Source of the DNA: an uncultured Nitrospiraceae bacterium
GTDB taxonomy: Bacteria; Nitrospirota; Thermodesulfovibrionia; Thermodesulfovibrionales; UBA6898
Direction: 5' to 3'
DNA length: 64,000 nucleotides
Assembly (NCBI GenBank): GCA_964461065.1
Contig: CAYWRK010000012.1
Coordinates: 6,723 to 70,722 of the forward strand
Positions 3,685-44,028 of the stretch are shown here, piece after piece. Both the position numbers and the translations under genes were made by a program. Numbering within the stretch: position 1 is the first letter of the stretch; each line of letters starts with the position of its first letter. The notes beneath the pieces are model-generated. The model did not search any database. It was not told the DNA's origin and saw nothing but the letters and a program-made list of their open reading frames with translations.

Positions 3685-4047
3685 ATGGAGATTAGTATCA
3701 GCATGGAGGGGGATTTCGTAGTAGCTGACGTAGCTGGTGATCTTGTAGCGAGTACAGCAGAGGAACTCAAGGCCCAGCTGGGAAAGCTGATCGAGAAGAA
3801 CTTTCTTTTCGTGATTCTCGAACTGAGCAAGATAAGCTTCATGGACAGTTCTGGCCTTGGTGCCTGCATGGCTGTTCATAAAGCATTCAATGAGAAAAAA
3901 GGGAGTCTTGTCTGCACAAAGCCGAGCGAGACCGTTGCCAAGGTCTTTCGTGTTACCCGCGCAGATCAGAAGCTGAACATGGCAAATACGCGCCTTGATG
4001 CCATTAAATTCCTGAAGAGTGCAGCGTTAAGCGGGAGGCAGTCATGA
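3685..4047 (+). CDS. STAS-domain anti-sigma-factor antagonist (RsbV/SpoIIAA-like)
   Basis: 120 aa with the conserved phosphorylatable motif FMDSSGLG. AAGGAGG lies 9 nt upstream of the ATG. Confidence 0.9.
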   Translation: MEISISMEGDFVVADVAGDLVASTAEELKAQLGKLIEKNFLFVILELSKISFMDSSGLGACMAVHKAFNEKKGSLVCTKPSETVAKVFRVTRADQKLNMANTRLDAIKFLKSAALSGRQS

Positions 4048-5795
4048 AGATGAACGAATCGACCAAGCTTGGCGAGATTCTGATAGAAAAGAAGATCATT
4101 ACTACTGCTCAGCTTGAGGAGGCTCAGAAGAAGATGCAGGCCCATTCTCTTCCTCTCGGTGAGATGCTGGTAAGGCTAAAATTCGTTTCTGAACATGTCA
4201 TGCTCGACACCCTCAGCAAGCATTTGGGTGTAGATTTTCTGAATATTGCAGAAAACGATTATCAAATCGTGGATCGTTCGTTATCAAGAGTTCTGCCTCT
4301 GGAAATATGCGAGAAACAGAAAGTTCTGCCGATCTATCAGATTATTGATGAAGATCTGCGAGAACTGACCCTGGCGATGGCCAATCCCTTTGATGAAGAT
4401 GTCATTAACGAGGTCGCATCCATAACGGAATGCCGCGTTAACCCGGTACTGGCAACCATCGCATCGATCGAAGGAGGCATTGCCAAGCTTTATGCGATCA
4501 AGACCGATGTCAAGATCGAGAAGTTCTCGATGCAGAAGGGTGATCCAACATCGCTTGTAAACGGGATGCTTCAGACTGCGGTGAGGCTTGGGGCAAGTGA
4601 TATCCATATTGATCCTCATCCGAAAGAGGTCTTTGTGCGGATGAGGGTTGACGGAATTCTGGAGGTTGTTTCTGTCTATCCGACGGAAATGCATTCATCC
4701 GTTTCCACAAGGATTAAGGTAATGGCAAGCGCTGCAAACTCGAACATGAGGATTGAAGAGCGTAGACTCCCGCAGGATGGGGCCATAGCCGGCACATTTG
4801 ACGGGCACCTTGTTGACTGCCGCGTATCTACGCTCCCATCGATATTTGGCGAGAAGATCGTCATGAGGATCTTCGACAAAGACAAGGCTGCCTATATTGG
4901 CCGCATCAGAGACCTCAAGATGTCTCCCCGGATGGAGTTGAAATACCGGCGCTGCGTAAGACATCCGAGCGGGATCAATATTGTTACGGGTCCGACCGGC
5001 AGCGGGAAGACGACAACATTGCACGCCGTGATCAATGAGATCAGCTCGGTTGGCATCAGCGTGGTTACCGTAGAGGATCCCGTCGAATACCAGGCAGGGG
5101 GATATATTAATCAGAGCTCCCTGATGCCCGCTGCCGGGTACAACTACACCCGGGCCCTGCGGGCAATCATGAGGCAAGATCCTGATGTCATTCTGATCGG
5201 TGAAGTAAGGGATCGTGAGACAGCCGAGATCGCAACGCAGGCAGCCTTGACAGGCCATCGCGTCTTCACAACCCTCCATACTGACAATGCAGCAAGCTCG
5301 TTTGCGCGACTGATCGATATCGGTGTCGAGCACTTTCTTGTCTCCTCCACAACGGTCTCATCCCTGAACCAGCGACTTATCCGCAAGGTCTGCACGAACT
5401 GCGCTGAAGAACATGTCCCGACAAAGGTTGAGCTGGCAGATATCGGCATTGACAGCCAGGTTATCAGCGAGATCTTGAATAATCCGCAGCAGTTCAGCAT
5501 GCGAAGGGGAAAGGGCTGTGATATGTGCCGCAAAACCGGTTATCGGGGAAGACAGGGTGTCTATGAACTAATAGCCGTCACCCCGGATATACGCGAGCTC
5601 ATTCATCGGAATCAATCAACTGATGTGATTGCTACAACGGCTAGGGAAAAAGACAATGTGAATATGATCTTCGAGGAGGGGTTGCGGCTTTTCCTGACAG
5701 GGGTTACCACGCTGGGCGAAATGCAGCACCTGCCTCGCGGTGATTATAAGATGAAATCGGTTGAAGAAATCCTGAAGGATTCTGAACTTTCATGA
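4044..5795 (+). CDS. GspE/PilB-family secretion or pilus-assembly ATPase
   Basis: Walker A GPTGSGKTTT, Walker B DPDVILIGEVRD, His box TGHRVFTTLHT and tetracysteine CTNC...CDMC. The N-terminus has T2SSE_N/MshEN-like tandem LGE repeats. ATGA overlap with the STAS gene. Confidence 0.9.
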   Translation: MKMNESTKLGEILIEKKIITTAQLEEAQKKMQAHSLPLGEMLVRLKFVSEHVMLDTLSKHLGVDFLNIAENDYQIVDRSLSRVLPLEICEKQKVLPIYQIIDEDLRELTLAMANPFDEDVINEVASITECRVNPVLATIASIEGGIAKLYAIKTDVKIEKFSMQKGDPTSLVNGMLQTAVRLGASDIHIDPHPKEVFVRMRVDGILEVVSVYPTEMHSSVSTRIKVMASAANSNMRIEERRLPQDGAIAGTFDGHLVDCRVSTLPSIFGEKIVMRIFDKDKAAYIGRIRDLKMSPRMELKYRRCVRHPSGINIVTGPTGSGKTTTLHAVINEISSVGISVVTVEDPVEYQAGGYINQSSLMPAAGYNYTRALRAIMRQDPDVILIGEVRDRETAEIATQAALTGHRVFTTLHTDNAASSFARLIDIGVEHFLVSSTTVSSLNQRLIRKVCTNCAEEHVPTKVELADIGIDSQVISEILNNPQQFSMRRGKGCDMCRKTGYRGRQGVYELIAVTPDIRELIHRNQSTDVIATTAREKDNVNMIFEEGLRLFLTGVTTLGEMQHLPRGDYKMKSVEEILKDSELS

Positions 5796-5831: not shown

Positions 5832-7502
5832 ATGACACATCCCAGTAGTGCGGTTCAGGAAAAGCTGAAGGGATTACGGAAGATTTTTTCCGATCAGCTG
5901 CCCGAAAAAATCCGGGAGATTGAAGAAGCTCTCGAAGGTCTGCTCAGGGACGAGTGGGATAAGACCCGGGCTGAAACTGTTGCACGCCTGATTCATACGA
6001 TGGCCGGCACTGCCGGCACCTTTGGCTTCTCTGCAATACGGTCCGCGGCGAAAAGTATTGAGGCACTGCTTCGAACAGCCACAAAGGACAGTGCTCTTCC
6101 GGCAGCCAATCTGCTGGCACAGATGAGAGAACAGTTAGAAACACTCAAGGGCGCCTGCGCAGATGCTGCAGTGACAATGGTCACTCCGGAGGTGATCGGG
6201 CAGGCACCCTTGCCTGTCTGCTCAGACAACGACACTGTTTTTGTTGTCGATAACGACCCCCTGTATACTGATAGCCTTGCTCTACAACTTCGCTGTTATG
6301 GATACAAGGTAGCCGCTTTCAGCACATTCGTTGATCTCATGGCGGCTTTGAGTGCTTCAACACCGCTGATTATTGTCATGGACCTGTCAATTCTCGAAGG
6401 TCAGCATGCCGGCGTAGACGCAGTTGCTGAGCTTCAGCAGAGATGCAGAACGGCAGTCCCCATTGTCTTCCTCTCTGACCGCTCTGATTTTAACGGTCGA
6501 CTGGAGGCAGCGCGCTCAGGCGGAGACGCCTATTTCGTAAAGCCAGTGAATGTTGGACGGCTGGTGGACAGGCTTGATGTTATGACTGCTCGCAGGCCCA
6601 GCACTCCCTTTCGCATCCTGATCGTAGACGACGACCCGCTCTTGGCGGACTTTCATGCAACCGTCTTGCAGCAGGCCGGTATGAGTACCGCAGTGGTCAC
6701 TGATCCTGAGCGGGCGCTGGAGAGCATGATCGACTTCAGGCCAGAGCTCATTTTAATGGATGTGTATATGCCGGGCTGCAGCGGCATGGAACTGGCCAAG
6801 TTGATACGTCAGGATGAGACGTACATTGATATCCCTATAGTATTCCTGTCCTCTGAAACTGACATAGACCGGCAGCTTGCTGCAATGGGCCGTGGAGGCG
6901 ACGATTTTCTAACCAAGCCGATACAGCCCGCCCGCCTGATTACGTCGGTTACGCTTCGTGCTGACCGGTACCGCACTCTGCGGTCCTTTATGCTGTATGA
7001 TGGGTTAACAGGACTTTTAAACCACACGAAGACAAAGGAGCAGTTAGACATCGAAGTCTCTCGCACCACGCGTCAAAAGAGTGAACTCTCCTTTGCCCTG
7101 ATCGATATAGACCTTTTTAAGTCTGTAAACGATACCTATGGCCATCCGGTCGGTGACCAGGTCCTCAAAAGTCTTTCCCGCCTGCTGAAGCAGAGGCTGA
7201 GAACAACGGATATTGTGGGTCGTTTCGGGGGAGAAGAGTTCGCAGTCATTCTCACTGATACCGACGGGCAGACGGCGCACAGGATATTGAACGAACTGAG
7301 GGAGGATTTCTCAAAGATCTGCCACACTCATATGGGTGTCACCTTTAATGTTACTTTTAGCTGCGGTATCGCCAACCCGGAATCGGGGATGACCGGCACT
7401 GCCCTGATCAACGAAGCGGACAAGGCCCTATACGAGGCCAAGCGGGCAGGACGAAACTGCGTGGTCTACGCGAGTGCAGGCGAAGCAGGTTCAGCTTGTT
7501 AG
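5832..7502 (+). CDS. HPt - REC - REC - GGDEF diguanylate cyclase
   Basis: HPt-like RLIHTMAGTAGTFG and two receiver domains (VFVVDND.., ILIVDDD...LMDVYMPGCSG). The GGDEF domain has an intact GGEEF A-site and an RTTD I-site 5 residues upstream. Confidence 0.9.
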   Translation: MTHPSSAVQEKLKGLRKIFSDQLPEKIREIEEALEGLLRDEWDKTRAETVARLIHTMAGTAGTFGFSAIRSAAKSIEALLRTATKDSALPAANLLAQMREQLETLKGACADAAVTMVTPEVIGQAPLPVCSDNDTVFVVDNDPLYTDSLALQLRCYGYKVAAFSTFVDLMAALSASTPLIIVMDLSILEGQHAGVDAVAELQQRCRTAVPIVFLSDRSDFNGRLEAARSGGDAYFVKPVNVGRLVDRLDVMTARRPSTPFRILIVDDDPLLADFHATVLQQAGMSTAVVTDPERALESMIDFRPELILMDVYMPGCSGMELAKLIRQDETYIDIPIVFLSSETDIDRQLAAMGRGGDDFLTKPIQPARLITSVTLRADRYRTLRSFMLYDGLTGLLNHTKTKEQLDIEVSRTTRQKSELSFALIDIDLFKSVNDTYGHPVGDQVLKSLSRLLKQRLRTTDIVGRFGGEEFAVILTDTDGQTAHRILNELREDFSKICHTHMGVTFNVTFSCGIANPESGMTGTALINEADKALYEAKRAGRNCVVYASAGEAGSAC

Positions 7503-10228: not shown

Positions 10229-12352
10229 CTACACCTTAACCTTCCAGACAGTACCTTCCTTCTTGTCTTCAAGTACCACCCCTTTATCTTCAAGCTCCCT
10301 GCGGATTGCATCAGCTGCAGCCCAATCCTTGCTGCCCCGGACTTTCTGCCGCTCCTCAATCTTTGATGCAATGAACTCCTCAGTCACATTCGGGCACTTG
10401 AACCGCATCAGCGCTTTGTTCCATTCTTCAGGTATGCGGCTGAAAATATTGAGAATACCTCCGGCCTCTTTAAGGAGTCCTTCGGTCCTTTTTACAAGAG
10501 CTGCTGCCCTTGAACCAGAGGGTTTGCCATCGAGATATTTATTCAGCATACGGATCAGTTCGAAGATATTTCCGATTGCAAGTGCAGTATTAAAGTCATC
10601 GTCCATCGCCTCTGTAAATCTATCCTTGAATTTATCCAACATCTCCTCGAATGCCTTCTCTTCTGAACCTGCCTTTTCCTTTGCATTATCCTGTACAAGA
10701 AAATCACGCACACGGAGAGCCGTGGTGTAGTAACGGTCAATGGATACCTCGGCCTCTTTCAGTTGTTCATCCGAAAACTCGATAGGGCTGCGGTAGTGGG
10801 TTGAAAGCAGAAAGAACCTCACCGGTTCCGCATCAAACTTTGAAAGAATTTCCTTAATGGTAAAGAAGTTGCCGAGAGACTTTGACATCTTCTCCTTATC
10901 TACGGTGATGAAGCCATTATGCACCCAGTATTTTGCAAAGGGTTTGCCGGTAAATGCCTCTGACTGGGCAATCTCATTTTCGTGATGCGGGAATGTCAGA
11001 TCAGCCCCTCCGCCGTGGATATCGAACGTATTGCCAAGATGCTTTCGTGACATGGCTGAACACTCGATATGCCAGCCTGGCCTGCCTGAGCCCCAGGGGC
11101 TGTCCCAGGAAGGCTCTCCTTCTTTTGATGCCTTCCATAGGGCGAAATCCATAGGATTTCGCTTGCGCTCATTAACATCAACCCGAGCACCTGCAATCAT
11201 GTCGTCAAGGTCACGTTTTGAAAGCTTTCCATAATCACTAAACGTATCGATCTGAAAATAGACATCTCCACCAACAGCATAGGCGTACCCTTTGTCCACA
11301 AGGCCCCTGGTAATGTCGATGATCTCCTGAATATGCTCGGTTGCCTTTGGCTCAATATCAGCCCTGTCCACACCGAGTTGATCCATGTCCTGATAATATT
11401 CAGCGATATATTTTTCTGCCACCTCGTTCCAGGCAATGCCCTCCTGTTTCGCCCTGTTGATAATCTTATCGTCGATATCCGTGAAATTCTTCACAAACGT
11501 AACATGGTATCCCCTGAACGCAAGATACCGGCGCATGATATCAAAAACGATGGAACTCCGCGCATGACCAATATGGCAATGGTCATAAACGGTTATACCA
11601 CAAACATACATTTTTACCTGTCCCGGCGCTACAGGAACAAAATCCTCTTTCTTGCCGCTCAGGGTATTATATAGCCTCATTCTGCCTCCTTTTTGCACAG
11701 CACTTTCAGGAGCCTCAATTTTTCTGGCAATCTCCGAGATACGCGCCTCAAGCTCCTTAATCTTTTCGTTCGTCGGGTCCGGGAAATAGTCCATCACCTC
11801 GACAAGCCCGTCTTCAGTCGTCATCCTTGTGATCTTCTTTCTTGTAATTCTGCCCGGTACTCCTACACATATGGCACTGTCAGGCACAGGCTTCAGAATC
11901 ACGGAGTTGGCGCCGATTACAGCGTTATTGCCGATTGTTATCGCGCCCAGTATCTTGGCTCCTGCGCCAATAGTCACATTATTGCCAAGTGTCGGATGAC
12001 GCTTGCCCTTTTCCTTGCCTGTGCCGCCAAGGGTCACTCCCTGGTAAAGAAGGCAGTCTTCTCCGATCTCTGAGGTTTCGCCTATTACGACACCCATGCC
12101 ATGGTCTATAAAAAACCCCATGCCTATCTTTGCTGCCGGGTGGATCTCTATCCCGGTGAGCATTCGCGCAGCATGAGAAAGAAGTCTGGGGAGGACTGGG
12201 ATGCCGGCGTTCCAGAGAATATGGTTAATCCTATGGATAACAATAGCATGGAATCCGGGATAGGCAACGATGACCTCGAGAGCGTTTCGCGCCGCAGGAT
12301 CTCTCTCGAAAACTGCCCTATAGTCCTGCTTTATTTCCCTCCAGAAGCCCAT
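10229..12352 (-). CDS. cysS: Serine O-acetyltransferase (CysE) fused in frame to cysteinyl-tRNA synthetase (CysS)
   Basis: Residues 1-175 are hexapeptide-repeat CysE (IHPAAKIGMGFFIDHGMGVVIGE). From M225 the protein is class I CysRS (MYVCGITVYDHCHIGHARS; KMSKSLGN). No stop codon separates the two parts. Confidence 0.85.
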   Translation of the reverse strand: MGFWREIKQDYRAVFERDPAARNALEVIVAYPGFHAIVIHRINHILWNAGIPVLPRLLSHAARMLTGIEIHPAAKIGMGFFIDHGMGVVIGETSEIGEDCLLYQGVTLGGTGKEKGKRHPTLGNNVTIGAGAKILGAITIGNNAVIGANSVILKPVPDSAICVGVPGRITRKKITRMTTEDGLVEVMDYFPDPTNEKIKELEARISEIARKIEAPESAVQKGGRMRLYNTLSGKKEDFVPVAPGQVKMYVCGITVYDHCHIGHARSSIVFDIMRRYLAFRGYHVTFVKNFTDIDDKIINRAKQEGIAWNEVAEKYIAEYYQDMDQLGVDRADIEPKATEHIQEIIDITRGLVDKGYAYAVGGDVYFQIDTFSDYGKLSKRDLDDMIAGARVDVNERKRNPMDFALWKASKEGEPSWDSPWGSGRPGWHIECSAMSRKHLGNTFDIHGGGADLTFPHHENEIAQSEAFTGKPFAKYWVHNGFITVDKEKMSKSLGNFFTIKEILSKFDAEPVRFFLLSTHYRSPIEFSDEQLKEAEVSIDRYYTTALRVRDFLVQDNAKEKAGSEEKAFEEMLDKFKDRFTEAMDDDFNTALAIGNIFELIRMLNKYLDGKPSGSRAAALVKRTEGLLKEAGGILNIFSRIPEEWNKALMRFKCPNVTEEFIASKIEERQKVRGSKDWAAADAIRRELEDKGVVLEDKKEGTVWKVKV

Positions 12353-28344: not shown

Positions 28345-28476
28345 ATGCGAGATCACACAAAGCTCAGGACATTTGAACTGGCCAAGGTGTTAAGGTCCTT
28401 GATTCGTTCTTTGCGTAGTCCTAACAGACTACAGTCTAAACAACCTGAGCACTTACTAATCCCAGTAACGTCATGA
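28345..28476 (+). pseudogene. Internally deleted relic of a four-helix-bundle (23S rRNA IVS-type) protein gene
   Basis: The 43-codon ORF is MRDHTKLRTFELAK-VLRSLIRSLRS.... From memory, the N-terminal and C-terminal signatures of that family are joined with the about 90-aa core missing. Confidence 0.3.
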
Positions 28477-28925
28477 GCAGAAAAGCGATCATATCCCTCG
28501 TTATCATAATCATATCTCCGGTCATTATCTATGCGCTCTGGCCCTCGGACGAGAGCAGGATAAAGAAACTCTTCAGAGAGGGTGTAAATGCCATTGAACA
28601 GGAGAAGATCGACGAGGTCATGGCAAAGGTATCGTTCAATTATACGGATGAATACGGGCTAACCTATCTTTTCATCAAGGAAGGCATGACCAGGCTTTTC
28701 CAGAACATGGACAACATCAAGGTCGAGTATGAGATCACCCGTATTGAGATAAAGGATAAAACCGCCGCTGCTGAGCTTGATGTCCGGGTATTGGCGACCC
28801 GTGGCAGTGACACAGGCTATATTGCCGGAGATATCTCAAAGCCTTTTCATATGAAGTTTTCCCTTGAAAAAGAGCGCACCACTTGGCTGGTTACAAAGAC
28901 CGAGGGCCTGCCTCTCGCTTTCTGA
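28473..28925 (+). CDS. Hypothetical membrane-anchored protein (possibly NTF2-like fold)
   Basis: N-terminal TM helix (ISLVIIIISPVIIYALW) and a 150-aa ORF with coding-like composition. No diagnostic motif was seen. Confidence 0.6.
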   Translation: MSRKAIISLVIIIISPVIIYALWPSDESRIKKLFREGVNAIEQEKIDEVMAKVSFNYTDEYGLTYLFIKEGMTRLFQNMDNIKVEYEITRIEIKDKTAAAELDVRVLATRGSDTGYIAGDISKPFHMKFSLEKERTTWLVTKTEGLPLAF

Positions 28926-29000
28926 CAAGGGGGCTCTCCAAACGCTAATTACAAAGGCTTCATTGCGATCTTGGATGCAACTCTGCGAAAATTCTTTTTA

Positions 29001-29027
29001 ACATCTGGTATTTGACATCTGGTATTT
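29001..29027. repeat. Tandem direct repeat 2 x ACATCTGGTATTT (1-nt spacer)
   Basis: Exact 13-mers at 29001-29013 and 29015-29027, about 33 nt upstream of the ATG at 29060. Confidence 0.9.
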
Positions 29028-29059
29028 CATTTGTGAGGCAAGATGTGGTAAAGTATTAC

Positions 29060-29821
29060 ATGCGCAAGATATTGACATTGATAGTTATTCTTTTTGCACT
29101 CATCTCTATGAGGCCTGAAGCCGTTGCCTCTGCAAAGGGAGATATCCTCAGCAATGAAGAAGCAAAAACTGTTCTGAATGAGCTCATGCCTGATGTAAAG
29201 ATTATCCATGTAAAGCAAAGCCCCCTGGCCGGACTCTGGGAAATCGGCGTAGATATGAAAGGGAAAAAGGCAATCGTTTACCTTGATCATACAAAGAAAT
29301 ATGTTATCTCCCCGATAACGCGCGGCGAGATCTTTGATATCAAGGCCAAGACCAGCCTTACCCAGGAAAGTTTCCAGAAGATCAATAAGGTTGATGTTTC
29401 AAAAATCCCGCTCAAGGATGCCCTTGTCCTCGGTGACAAGACAGCCAAGAATAAGGTCATTGTATTTTCAGACCCGGATTGACCATACTGCGGAAAACTT
29501 CATCTGGAGATGAAGAAGGTCATAAAGGACAGGAAAGATATAGCCTTCTATACCATCCTCTTCCCCCTGCCGATGCACAAAGAGGCATACGGTAAATCAA
29601 AGGCCATTATTTGTGAGCAATCGCTTGATCTGCTTGATGCTGCCTTTGAGAAGAAGCCGCTGCCGGCACCGAGCTGCGAGACAACAGTAATCGATCAGAA
29701 TATCAAGCTCGCAGAGAAACTCGGTATCAGCGGAACGCCTGCGGTCATCTTCCCCAATGGGACGAATATCCCAGGAGCTATTGATGCTGCTGAGATCATA
29801 AAACAGGTCGACAAAAAGTAA
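29060..29821 (+). CDS. DsbC/DsbG-like thiol:disulfide interchange protein, predicted selenoprotein (UGA at 29480-29482 read as Sec; U-P-Y-C motif)
   Basis: Signal peptide. ORFs 29012-29482 and 29510-29821 are in the same frame. The TGA aligns with the first Cys of CPYC in the downstream paralogue (FSDPD-TGA-PYCGKL vs FTDPDCPYCAKV). Homology continues after the TGA (DIAFY..PLPMH, GISGTPA). Confidence 0.75.
29498..29515 (+). promoter_or_regulatory. Candidate bacterial SECIS hairpin
   Basis: CTTCATC-TGGA-GATGAAG is a perfect 7-bp stem with a 4-nt G-containing loop. It starts 15 nt after the in-frame TGA. Confidence 0.55.
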
Positions 29822-30011
29822 TTTCGGCTTCAGCCCTTCTTTTGCCCTTTTCCACAGCGCTCTTTTAGTAAGTCCTCATAGGCTTGTTTTCCCTCCTTTC
29901 CTTTGCGAAATAATACGGATTGTGATATAAAAAGAGAGATGCCACGGCGGAAAGTCTAAACAGCCTGAGCAGTTAGAAATAAACATATTGATCAAGGAGA
30001 AGAAAGATTAT

Positions 30012-30818
30012 ATGAAAAAGATTCTGATTATTGGTTTTTTTATCGCATTGCTTGTGCCGGCGAGGGCCTTTGCTTTTGGCGGGTGTGAGGAGGACTGCAT
30101 GAAGTGTCATTCTATGAACACTCAGGATGTCCAGCAAATACTCACGAAGTTAGGCGCAGCCGAGGCAAAACCCCTGGACATCAAGCTCAGCCCGGTGAAA
30201 GGGCTCTGGGAAGTCATTATAGAGGACAAGGGCACCAGAGGCGTCATGTATATCGGTTTTTCGAAACGGCATGTTGTTGCCGGCCCTATTTTTGAGGTTG
30301 ATACCGGGACGAACAAGACGCAGGAGACCTTTGAGAAGGTTAACAGGGGGTTGGTCAGATATGTTGATTATGCGAAGATCCCGCTCGATAAGTCCCTGAT
30401 CATCGGCGAGAAGAATGCCAAATACAGGGTGGCGGTCTTTACTGATCCGGACTGTCCGTACTGTGCAAAGGTCCATGACGAGATAAAAAAAGTTGTTGCT
30501 GAGAGAAAAGATATTGCTTTTTATCTCAAGCTGATACCTCTGCCAATGCATCCCGATGCCTTCTGGAAATCCCAGAGCATTCTCTGCAAGAATTCGGTCC
30601 AGTTGCTTGAGGATAATTTCGCAAAAAAAGAGATGCCCAAGCCTGACTGTGACAACAAGCAGGAGGTTGAGGCGAATATGATGCTTGCCACTGAACTCGG
30701 CATCACCGGAACACCAACCATGGTTTTACCTGACGGCATGGTCGTGATCGGCGGCAAGGATGCAAAGGCGATCATAGACCTTGTGACCAATCCTCCTGTG
30801 AAGAAGGAGAGCAAATAA
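30012..30818 (+). CDS. DsbC/DsbG-like thiol:disulfide interchange protein (Cys form, CPYC)
   Basis: Signal peptide (FFIALLVPARAFA), an N-terminal dimerisation-like domain and a thioredoxin fold with CPYC. It is a paralogue of the preceding gene. It also carries an extra N-terminal CEEDCMKCH. Confidence 0.85.
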   Translation: MKKILIIGFFIALLVPARAFAFGGCEEDCMKCHSMNTQDVQQILTKLGAAEAKPLDIKLSPVKGLWEVIIEDKGTRGVMYIGFSKRHVVAGPIFEVDTGTNKTQETFEKVNRGLVRYVDYAKIPLDKSLIIGEKNAKYRVAVFTDPDCPYCAKVHDEIKKVVAERKDIAFYLKLIPLPMHPDAFWKSQSILCKNSVQLLEDNFAKKEMPKPDCDNKQEVEANMMLATELGITGTPTMVLPDGMVVIGGKDAKAIIDLVTNPPVKKESK

Positions 30819-32231: not shown

Positions 32232-32666
32232 TCATCTGACTAAAGGATTTTTCGCTCTGACTTCAGGGAATCTGCTGAAATCCCTGTCAGCGGTCCATAG
32301 CTCAGTTACGCCATGCAGCACGCATAATGCCGCCACCCTTGCATCGTGAACCATAGGGCCAGATATCCGGCTATTCATCAGCATAGGTTTTAGCACCGTC
32401 CAGTAGTCTTCTGACTCTGCAAGCAGAACAAGACTTGGGGATTCCAGCCATGCTTCAACTTGCTCTATTGCCTTGTCAATCGGCGTTGGAGGAGAATAGA
32501 TTTTCGGGTGAGTTGCAATTGCAATGAATTCGTGAATACATGGCCATGGGATTGCCCACATCCCCTGTCCTTCAGCCAATCCTGCTATGCAACAATATGC
32601 GGCATCATGCCATTCAGCGTCTTCGCGGTGTGCATACACCAGAAGATTCGTATCTACTGCAATCAA
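32232..32666 (-). CDS. vapC: PIN-domain ribonuclease toxin VapC
   Basis: MIAVDTNLLVYA N-terminal acidic motif and further conserved acidic residues. 4-nt overlap with the upstream antitoxin gene. Confidence 0.85.
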   Translation of the reverse strand: MIAVDTNLLVYAHREDAEWHDAAYCCIAGLAEGQGMWAIPWPCIHEFIAIATHPKIYSPPTPIDKAIEQVEAWLESPSLVLLAESEDYWTVLKPMLMNSRISGPMVHDARVAALCVLHGVTELWTADRDFSRFPEVRAKNPLVR

Positions 32667-32920
32667 CTGCCGCGTCCTTCATAGCTGATATCACGGATAC
32701 GCTCCCAGTTTGCCCCTTCCATATTGGACTGAAGACCATTTCCCTTGAATATGGCGCTACGGAGCTTGAAACTGCCGCGTTGCCTGTGTTCAGCAATAAT
32801 TTTGCGAAGTCCTTCCTCCATGAGTGCCTTCAGAGTTGTCTGCTCCTCATTTGCAAGTTTGCGTGCCTCGTTAAAAAGGCTATCAGGTATCTGTATGGTT
32901 GTCTTCATATGGCTAACCAT
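32663..32920 (-). CDS. vapB: VapB-type antitoxin
   Basis: 85 aa with N-terminal MKTTIQIPDSLFNEARKLA. Translationally coupled to vapC. Confidence 0.8.
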   Translation of the reverse strand: MVSHMKTTIQIPDSLFNEARKLANEEQTTLKALMEEGLRKIIAEHRQRGSFKLRSAIFKGNGLQSNMEGANWERIRDISYEGRGS

Positions 32921-42974: not shown

Positions 42975-43646
42975 TTATACGCCACGCTTCTTTCTTGCTG
43001 CCTCAAGGTCGAACACAAATTGTTTTACGTGCGTCCGAAAAAAATACCTGACATCTTCCCAGTTTAGCTCCATCCCTTTTCTATAAGCCGGTTCGGGATT
43101 AGTGTCAGCGTCCGCAAAATATACGAGCGATTTGCCCATCTGAACAGGGTTGACCCGCTCTATTCCAAACCGCTTTATCATATGCCCCGCGAGTTTGTGA
43201 AAAGGGGTCTCCTGCAGAATAGCGTAAAGGTCTACGAAATCCCTTTTTGCCCCACGCTGCATTAGAGCGATCACTTTCATCGCGGCTATATCGAGTATCC
43301 CGGCCATGCGTGTCTGATCGAGCTCAACGATACTGTCGAGAAAAGGATATTCATATCTAAAAAAAGACGCTTTGACTCCCTCAATCTCCATGGTTAGGCT
43401 GCCCTCTTCCTCGGCCAATATCCGAAAATCCAATGCTGCTTTTTTGATCTCTGAAATGAGCTTATCATTCCTGAAACTGCGCAGAGTGAAAAAGTCGAGG
43501 TCGTAAGATATCCGATGCCCTTTTTGCAGGGATAATGCTGTGCCCCCAGCCAGCAAAAATTGATTGGCCTGGATGATACCCCACAATGAAGTCAGGACCC
43601 TCCAGCCATTATCGGGAAGGCAGGCTTTATATATTTTCAAAGCCAA
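42975..43646 (-). CDS. Nucleotidyltransferase AbiEii/AbiGii-family toxin
   Basis: LLAGGTALSLQKGHRISYDLDFF motif, typical of the family. Overlaps the upstream small gene. Confidence 0.8.
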   Translation of the reverse strand: MALKIYKACLPDNGWRVLTSLWGIIQANQFLLAGGTALSLQKGHRISYDLDFFTLRSFRNDKLISEIKKAALDFRILAEEEGSLTMEIEGVKASFFRYEYPFLDSIVELDQTRMAGILDIAAMKVIALMQRGAKRDFVDLYAILQETPFHKLAGHMIKRFGIERVNPVQMGKSLVYFADADTNPEPAYRKGMELNWEDVRYFFRTHVKQFVFDLEAARKKRGV

Positions 43647-44028
43647 ACCATAAACTCCAGAAAGTCCTTGATTTACGACTGAGCCCTCTGCTGTCAGCGA
43701 GGACTTCCTTTATCTTTTGAAGGGTAACTATCCCCTGGAGCCAGTTCACCGCATCCAGACTGCCCAACTCGAGGACCCTTTCTATTATGTAACGGGAGTT
43801 TCTCTTTACGTGGATATCCTCAAGCCGTGCATCCCAGAACAGGGAACAAAACCTTTCCGGTACCGAGGTTGTCTCGCGGAGGGCCGACATTATTTTTTCG
43901 ACTCTGGGGTCACCAATTGGTCCTATATATCTGTGTTTCACTTTTCCACCCTCACGAGCGGAAAGATATACATAGGATCTCCGGCCGACTACTTTGGTTA
44001 TCAATGCCATGTCTCTATTATACCACAC
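43627..44028 (-). CDS. Putative cognate antitoxin of the AbiEii-like toxin
   Basis: 133 aa with a 20-nt overlap with the toxin gene. The call rests on position only. Confidence 0.55.
   Translation of the reverse strand: MWYNRDMALITKVVGRRSYVYLSAREGGKVKHRYIGPIGDPRVEKIMSALRETTSVPERFCSLFWDARLEDIHVKRNSRYIIERVLELGSLDAVNWLQGIVTLQKIKEVLADSRGLSRKSRTFWSLWFGFENI

Follow-up and report, generated by a model that had tools for sequence, protein, structure and literature searches.

The window considered here, a 64,000-nucleotide stretch of contig CAYWRK010000012.1 from an uncultured Nitrospiraceae bacterium, carries at positions 29060-29821 of the forward strand a complete gene of 252 sense codons closed by a TAA stop, in which codon 141 is a TGA predicted to encode selenocysteine (Sec); its predicted product is a DsbC-like thiol:disulfide oxidoreductase. 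The open reading frame (ORF) track cuts this gene into 29012-29482 and 29510-29821, two ORFs that lie in one common frame, as was pointed out in the original prediction made from the same DNA and as is evident from the ORF list. The start used in that track, TTG 29012, was corrected to ATG 29060, which is used by all orthologues and which, like the position of the stop, is common to them. When the TGA is read as Cys, the product comprises 253 amino acids (aa).

The N-terminal segment (29060-29128; MRKILTLIVILFALISMRPEAVA, with S following the cleavage point) combines a basic N-terminus, a hydrophobic core and an A-x-A site and is a probable signal peptide of the Sec (secretory) type, implying a periplasmic protein. 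Behind it lie the DsbC N-terminal (dimerisation) domain (PF10411 DsbC_N; 29156-29365, residues 33-102, 34.6 bits for a cut-off of 25, E=1.4e-08) and the thioredoxin-fold catalytic domain (PF13098 Thioredoxin_2; 29438-29803, residues 127-248, 66.6 bits, above the cut-off, E=2.9e-18), inside which the TGA is located; Pfam also gave a partial match to PF13462. Residues 50-246 match Escherichia coli DsbC (PDB 1EEJ) with E=8e-13, and the predicted membership in the DsbC fold is based on these Pfam and PDB sequence matches. Among the NCBIfam models, DsbC scores better than DsbG (70.5 versus 44 bits), the score for the DsbC equivalog NF008129 (70.5 bits) lying under its curated cut-off of 215, and no match to NF041057, the DsbG-like selenoprotein model, was obtained at E<=0.001; the protein is best described as DsbC-like and is not an equivalog of E. 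coli DsbC. It has in common with the latter the association of DsbC_N with a thioredoxin fold, the position of the active site and a second conserved Cys pair, and differs from it, besides the low equivalog score, by Sec in place of the attacking Cys, by a UPYC instead of a CGYC motif and, in most members of the family, by an extra N-terminal CxxCH. The second Cys pair consists of Cys185 (29612-29614) and Cys206 (29675-29677), both invariant in our family alignment A1 and aligned to a Cys of E. coli DsbC (1EEJ) and to its partner; we take them to be the counterpart of the DsbC structural disulfide Cys141-Cys163.

The in-frame TGA and the frame behind it

The TGA (29480-29482, predicted U141) occupies the N-terminal attacking position of the U-P-Y-C redox motif, the remainder of which, P-Y-C, is encoded by 29483-29491, with the resolving Cys144 at 29489-29491. 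The sequence 29471-29491 reads GAC CCG GAT TGA CCA TAC TGC, i.e. D-P-D-[TGA]-P-Y-C, and in the alignment with E. coli DsbC, U141 falls on the Cys that opens the CGYC active site. The residue that homologues place opposite U141 is invariably Cys, the 59 Cys-form relatives of the family included. The correspondence with the CPYC motif of the neighbouring paralogue, on which the original prediction had relied, is found exactly as described, DPD-U-PYC lying over DPD-C-PYC, and the similarity between the two proteins extends beyond the TGA to the C-terminus.

Protein searches returned 11 matches at 72-100% identity, all ending near 140 aa, together with full-length matches of at most 62% identity that have Cys at the site. 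At the nucleotide level, TGA is present at this codon in all nine orthologous loci that were fetched, and the seven that reach far enough all possess 112 open codons up to a common stop. OY970295.1, GCA_016214855.1 and GCA_016217675.1 are among the assemblies in which the gene is present. Contigs representing one genome per species returned 80 loci, 22 of which carry TGA at the codon, down to about 45% identity and with record titles that are almost all Nitrospirota or Thermodesulfovibrionales; the distinct relatives with TGA at the codon number 30, with identity likewise down to about 45%. The complete Sec forms all have 111 to 127 open codons past the TGA, and neither frameshifts nor extra stops were seen in the 27 that were analysed. 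The ratio of nonsynonymous to synonymous divergence (dN/dS), computed against the window gene for the part lying 3' of the hairpin described below, is 0.04-0.10 at a dS of 0.8-1.2, the same as in the upstream part; purifying selection on the frame past the TGA is strong. In the stretch that leads from the TGA to the following ATG, the 27 Sec forms keep Pro (CCA, CCC or CCT) and Cys (TGC or TGT) through codons that vary synonymously; this stretch is therefore translated.

A hairpin associated with the TGA

A predicted core of a bacterial selenocysteine insertion sequence (SECIS) is located at 29495-29515 on the forward strand. It is composed of AAA followed by a perfect stem of 7 bp (29498-29504 and 29509-29515, with arms CTTCATC and GATGAAG) enclosing the loop TGGA (29505-29508), with G at loop positions 2 and 3; the stem starts 15 nt past the TGA, just as first noticed, and the hairpin overlaps a conserved K-L-H-x-E-M-K segment placed directly after the active site. 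Its minimum free energy (MFE) is -10.8 kcal/mol and the spacing from UGA to loop is 22 nt. The bacterial SECIS model calls for a loop of 3-9 nt, a stem of 4-16 bp, G in the first two loop positions, a spacing of 16-37 nt and an MFE <= -7.5 (PMC13188914). Compared with this consensus (Zhang and Gladyshev, summarised in Fig. 2A of PMC13188914), the hairpin is alike in its 4-nt loop, its 7-bp stem, the G at loop position 2 followed by another G, its 22-nt spacing and its MFE <= -7.5, and it agrees with the model in all four criteria of PMC13188914, so that the place and form originally ascribed to it stand. In the window, a given codon has a chance of about 1% of being followed, at SECIS spacing, by a perfect 7-bp hairpin whose loop is suitable.

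The hairpin is conserved wherever the TGA is. An identical stem, CTTCATC-NGGN-GATGAAG, is present in all 28 Sec forms long enough to be scored and in 2 of 59 Cys forms, those with seven pairs (Fisher p=9e-21); the loops of the 28 are AGGA, TGGA, AGGC or GGGT, and their MFE ranges from -8.1 to -16.4 kcal/mol, being <= -7.5 in 28/28. Conservation of the protein sequence can be told apart from that of the RNA in the eight Cys forms whose LHxEMK peptide is the same: one keeps the stem and seven have it broken by synonymous changes. Codons +5, +6, +7, +9 and +11 are each represented by a single codon in all Sec forms, which is the case for none of the 76 comparable degenerate columns elsewhere in the gene; outside codons +5 to +11, synonymous sites are not frozen. 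The association also holds in the reverse direction: a search of JGI metagenome contigs with the hairpin alone gave 119 usable matches, and in 109 of them a TGA stands exactly 15 nt upstream, 98 times in a strict DP[D/E/N]-U-P-[Y/F/W]-C context and 11 times in near variants, the other 10 matches being unrelated genes and TGT or TGC occurring in none. An RNA-level constraint thus sits exactly on the hairpin and is tied to the TGA.

Decoding of the UGA

The conserved TGA, the selection acting downstream of it and the invariant hairpin support the prediction of a selenoprotein in which Sec takes the place of the first CxxC Cys, and we consider it highly probable that 29060-29821 encodes one secreted DsbC-type thiol:disulfide oxidoreductase/isomerase with UGA-141 read as Sec and the active site U-P-Y-C. 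Following the standard bacterial pathway, the mRNA hairpin AAA-CUUCAUC-UGGA-GAUGAAG, 15 nt past the UGA, would act as SECIS and bind SelB, GTP and Sec-tRNASec for delivery to the UGA, so that translation would run on through the remaining 112 codons. In the periplasm, a selenolate at the position of the DsbC attacking Cys would attack substrate disulfides, and the resulting selenenylsulfide would be resolved in isomerisation by a thiol of the substrate and in reduction by Cys144, the enzyme presumably being recycled by a DsbD/CcdA-type reductant. In this scheme, we infer the identity of the inserted residue, the SelB dependence, the periplasmic location, the dimerisation and the substrates.

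Several results weigh against the insertion of Sec. In searches that covered the window and about 1.18 Mb of fetched related DNA, no tRNA-Sec was detected by ARAGORN and Rfam in the window, nor by ARAGORN in 209 loci (1.12 Mb), and tblastn with E. coli SelA, SelB and SelD gave no match to selA, selB or selD in the window or the fetched loci. Folded as a single sequence, the window hairpin is unremarkable (z = -0.93, 35 of 200 shuffles folding as well); compensatory covariation is absent from its invariant stem; no Rfam family matched the region around it, permissive thresholds giving only chance-level matches; and 3 of 88 complete metagenome copies of the gene have an early stop 22-65 codons past the TGA. 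To our knowledge, Rfam holds no general bacterial SECIS model. The stem being invariant, support for an RNA structure comes from the frozen synonymous sites and from the association with the TGA, and the significance of the hairpin derives from comparative data. Pfam revealed no Sec machinery among the approximately 50 genes of the window, and the Sec trait of the source genome is supported at the level of its lineage by the literature: Thermodesulfovibrio genomes possess complete selA, selB, selC and selD (PMC5389517), Sec-containing MccSep homologues are mainly found in Desulfobacterota and Nitrospirota, in the latter mostly in Thermodesulfovibrionia (PMC13510729), and a selC overlapping selB has been reported in Nitrospirae (PMC9312934, PMC13188914).

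The UGA might instead be read, with the help of the hairpin, as Cys, or as a mixture of Sec and Cys set by the selenium supply, by a mechanism put forward for certain anaerobes that involves a tRNASec-like tRNACys(UCA) (selC*) and perhaps a second SelB (PMC5389517). Such selC* tRNACys, with GCA or UCA anticodons, have been reported from Thermodesulfovibrio and from contigs of probable Nitrospirae origin, and in E. coli the UCA version decoded an opal codon as Cys (PMC5389517); moreover, Cys works at the site and is what many relatives have there. However, the descriptions of dedicated selB* and cysS* genes and of the UCA anticodon concern Deltaproteobacteria and not Nitrospirota, every genome containing selC* also had the full Sec apparatus (PMC5389517), and no selC*-type tRNA was found in any of the fetched DNA. 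If Cys alone were inserted, a change from TGA to TGY would be neutral, and a costly hairpin would not stay invariant over more than 100 sequences. We therefore regard a reading as Cys, pure or mixed with Sec, as very improbable. A reassignment of UGA throughout the genome, for example to Trp or Gly, would turn the TGA into an ordinary sense codon; UGA-reassigned codes exist in other lineages, and nothing specific speaks for one here. Of 32 well-supported genes in the window, 13 end in TGA, and the places where they end agree with full-length Pfam domains, so the genetic code is standard and TGA an ordinary stop; the screen of all fetched DNA for further conserved in-frame TGAs gave this family alone, and the constant Cys at the aligned position of homologues is equally at odds with a new sense codon, leaving reassignment with a practically negligible probability.

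Translation could also stop at the TGA and restart at ATG 29510, producing two polypeptides, the DsbC_N dimerisation module of 140 aa and a fragment of the thioredoxin fold with 103 aa and no CxxC. Gene callers give exactly these two ORFs in every assembly, and the ATG lies 27 nt past the TGA, but it belongs to the stem of the hairpin, and the nine codons that precede it keep P-[Y/F/H]-C and K-L-H with the synonymous variation of Pro and Cys codons that marks them as translated. The fragment would, in addition, lack both redox residues as well as the strand and helix with which the thioredoxin fold begins, and the closely related TGC forms are single ORFs; we find a restart very improbable. 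That the TGA is a true premature stop, due to decay of the gene or to a sequencing or assembly error, would fit the early stops of the three metagenome copies and the public name of the one orthologue record that was read, a 140-aa 'hypothetical protein'. This is contradicted by the comparative data: over 100 sequences, assembled independently and drawn from many samples, have the same TGA, the frame behind it stays open for 111-127 codons in complete Sec forms that are free of frameshifts and extra stops, and the downstream dN/dS is low at a near-saturated dS, all of which speaks against a pseudogene, an explanation that can hardly be entertained.

Relatives, gene neighbourhood and significance

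By record titles, the family is mostly from Nitrospirota, class Thermodesulfovibrionia, and in a neighbour-joining tree its Sec and Cys forms are interspersed. Cys/Sec pairs do occur at the TGA column, as illustrated by L051 (TGA, position 838) and L058 (TGC, position 2028), two loci with 92.6% nucleotide identity and an intact hairpin in both; L058 represents a very recent Sec-to-Cys change. Because one invariant hairpin is shared by relatives whose synonymous sites are saturated, and Sec and Cys forms are interspersed, the data suggest that the ancestor was a Sec form and that Cys replaced Sec repeatedly, a pattern described for bacterial selenoproteins generally (PMC1794560). The metagenome-assembled genome (MAG) to which L058 belongs is labelled Nitrospinota. 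L079 (position 3460), a Cys form from a Deltaproteobacteria MAG, has a seven-pair hairpin with both arms altered (CTCCATT / GATGGAG). Active-site variants were encountered in metagenomes, namely UPHC in L123, L136, L189, L195 and L199, which we take to resemble the DsbA motif, and U-P-F-S in L162, with Ser in place of the resolving Cys.

An N-terminal CxxCH, usually D-C-x-K-C-H and corresponding to the c-type haem-binding signature, is found in 59 of the 83 full-length family members of alignment A1. Cys forms account for 48 of these (out of 56) and Sec forms for 11 (out of 27), and in the latter the motif precedes the active site by about 108 residues. It may serve to bind haem, supply a second redox pair or imitate an apocytochrome substrate. 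The motif is lost in the window Sec gene and its close orthologues and present in the neighbouring paralogue (30096-30110, C29-M-K-C32-H33).

This paralogue, a Cys-containing DsbC-like gene at 30012-30818 on the forward strand, combines the CPYC active site and the CxxCH with the same two Pfam domains and shares 40% identity with the Sec gene over 262 columns when the TGA is read as Cys (E=1e-69). The original prediction had described a Cys paralogue next door, and the adjacent gene is real, but it is no Cys counterpart of the Sec gene: the neighbour-joining tree places it in a distant all-Cys clade, and closer Cys homologues, with up to 62% identity, reside in other genomes. Both genes stand in tandem at every close orthologous locus long enough to show them. 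Directly upstream of the Sec gene, 28473-28925 (forward strand) encodes a 150-aa hypothetical protein with an N-terminal hydrophobic segment and no Pfam match; a 150-aa gene likewise precedes the Sec gene in L001, in L003-L009 and in the JGI locus, and the upstream gene is possibly co-transcribed with the Sec gene. A tandem direct repeat, TTT[A/G]ACATCTGGTA x2, is present at 28997-29024, about 35 nt 5' of the ATG of the Sec gene. A 23-nt motif, AGTCTAAACA[A/G]CCTGAGCA[C/G]TTA, occurs in exactly two copies in the 64 kb, none being expected by chance, one at 28433-28455 just 5' of the 150-aa gene and the other at 29953-29975 5' of the Cys paralogue; it is found at one or both positions in L001, L003/L004, L006, L011 and L012, and may be a shared promoter or regulator site.

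In close relatives, the genes are arranged in the order aminotransferase, 150-aa hypothetical, Sec-DsbC, Cys-DsbC, variable toxin-antitoxin genes, and minor pilins with a PilY1-like giant protein. The PilY1-like ORF of the window, earlier sized at 2018 aa, measures 2021 aa from its GTG and contains 53 Cys (2.6%). A functional link with the pilus genes, to which the vicinity of this Cys-rich protein had drawn attention, is unsupported: the synteny is restricted to close relatives, and the variable genes in between, together with the several distant Sec forms that adjoin tRNA-Leu genes, leave a specific pilus role without support. The toxin-antitoxin genes of the window are a VapBC (PIN/VapB) pair and an AbiEii/DUF6922 pair, at 32232-32920 and 42975-44028 on the reverse strand, located between the dsbC and pilin genes and after the latter; at these places, orthologous loci have other toxin-antitoxin genes, such as BrnT or AAA_14/PIN.

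Elsewhere in the window, 4044-5795 and 5832-7502 (forward strand) were considered as another split gene, as they share one frame and are separated by a TGA (5793-5795) and 12 codons. They were ruled out as unrelated genes, the former encoding a T2SSE/MshEN ATPase and the latter a Hpt-REC-GGDEF protein, and the remaining split-ORF candidates were antisense or out-of-frame shadows. A 707-aa cysteinyl-tRNA synthetase (CysRS) encoded on the reverse strand (10229-12352) has an N-terminal extension of about 230 residues before its catalytic domain (238-534), with a hexapeptide-repeat (acyltransferase-type) match at residues 119-153, and may be a fusion.

That the class is not unprecedented had been recognised from the start, and UxxC thioredoxin-fold selenoproteins of the thiol:disulfide interchange type are indeed catalogued, two Dsb-type families being listed (PMC1088965, PMC1794560, PMC9312934, PMC13188914). 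The 'thiol:disulfide interchange protein' family (PF13098 Thioredoxin_2, UxxC, exemplar WP_011366075.1; PMC9312934, PMC13188914) was predicted by Kryukov and Gladyshev and includes Geobacter metallireducens, G. uraniumreducens and Syntrophus aciditrophicus (PMC1794560, PMC9312934, PMC13188914). Compared by domain and motif alone, it resembles the window family in PF13098, in a UxxC with Sec first, in being a computational prediction and in its occurrence in anaerobes; the reviews mention no DsbC_N domain and no Nitrospirota members for it, whereas the window family is mostly from Thermodesulfovibrionia. The 'DsbG-like' family (COG1651 / PF13462 / NCBIfam NF041057, UxxC; PMC1088965, PMC13188914) is likewise a periplasmic Dsb-type thioredoxin fold with UxxC, and the window protein partially matches PF13462, but it differs in having no NF041057 match and in scoring better with DsbC than with DsbG. 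We propose only tentatively, as a rather doubtful possibility, that the proteins described here form a separate selenoprotein family, apart from both catalogued ones, with DsbC_N and a thioredoxin fold carrying UP[Y/F/H]C, often with CxxCH, centred on Thermodesulfovibrionia and ancestrally Sec, whose ultraconserved 18-nt SECIS would have decayed repeatedly after Sec-to-Cys changes. It is less likely that, in such a family, the UGA would in addition be read as Sec or Cys according to the selenium supply, via selC*-type tRNAs.

In the public record, the orthologous first half of the gene appears as the 140-aa 'hypothetical protein HZB62_13025' (MBI5076074.1), the one named record that was read, and JGI labels several 140-aa fragments DsbC. 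On the strength of the sequence comparisons, we consider it well supported that the locus holds a selenoprotein gene missing from public annotation, and that this gene is part of a clade of DsbC-type UxxC oxidoreductases which is widespread and found mainly in Nitrospirota. Among predicted bacterial selenoproteins, no type is more common than the UxxC proteins with a thioredoxin fold, and for this reason the general picture is unchanged. With the gene cut in two by gene callers, however, metabolic reconstructions of Nitrospirota from groundwater, sediment and wetlands lack a predicted periplasmic redox enzyme, and the selenium dependence of these organisms would be under-counted as a result. 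The family also offers a natural data set, with more than 100 predicted Sec forms, numerous Cys forms scattered among them and one pair a single base apart in which the hairpin is intact. This set could be used to study how SECIS elements persist or vanish and why Sec stays at the attacking position of an isomerase.

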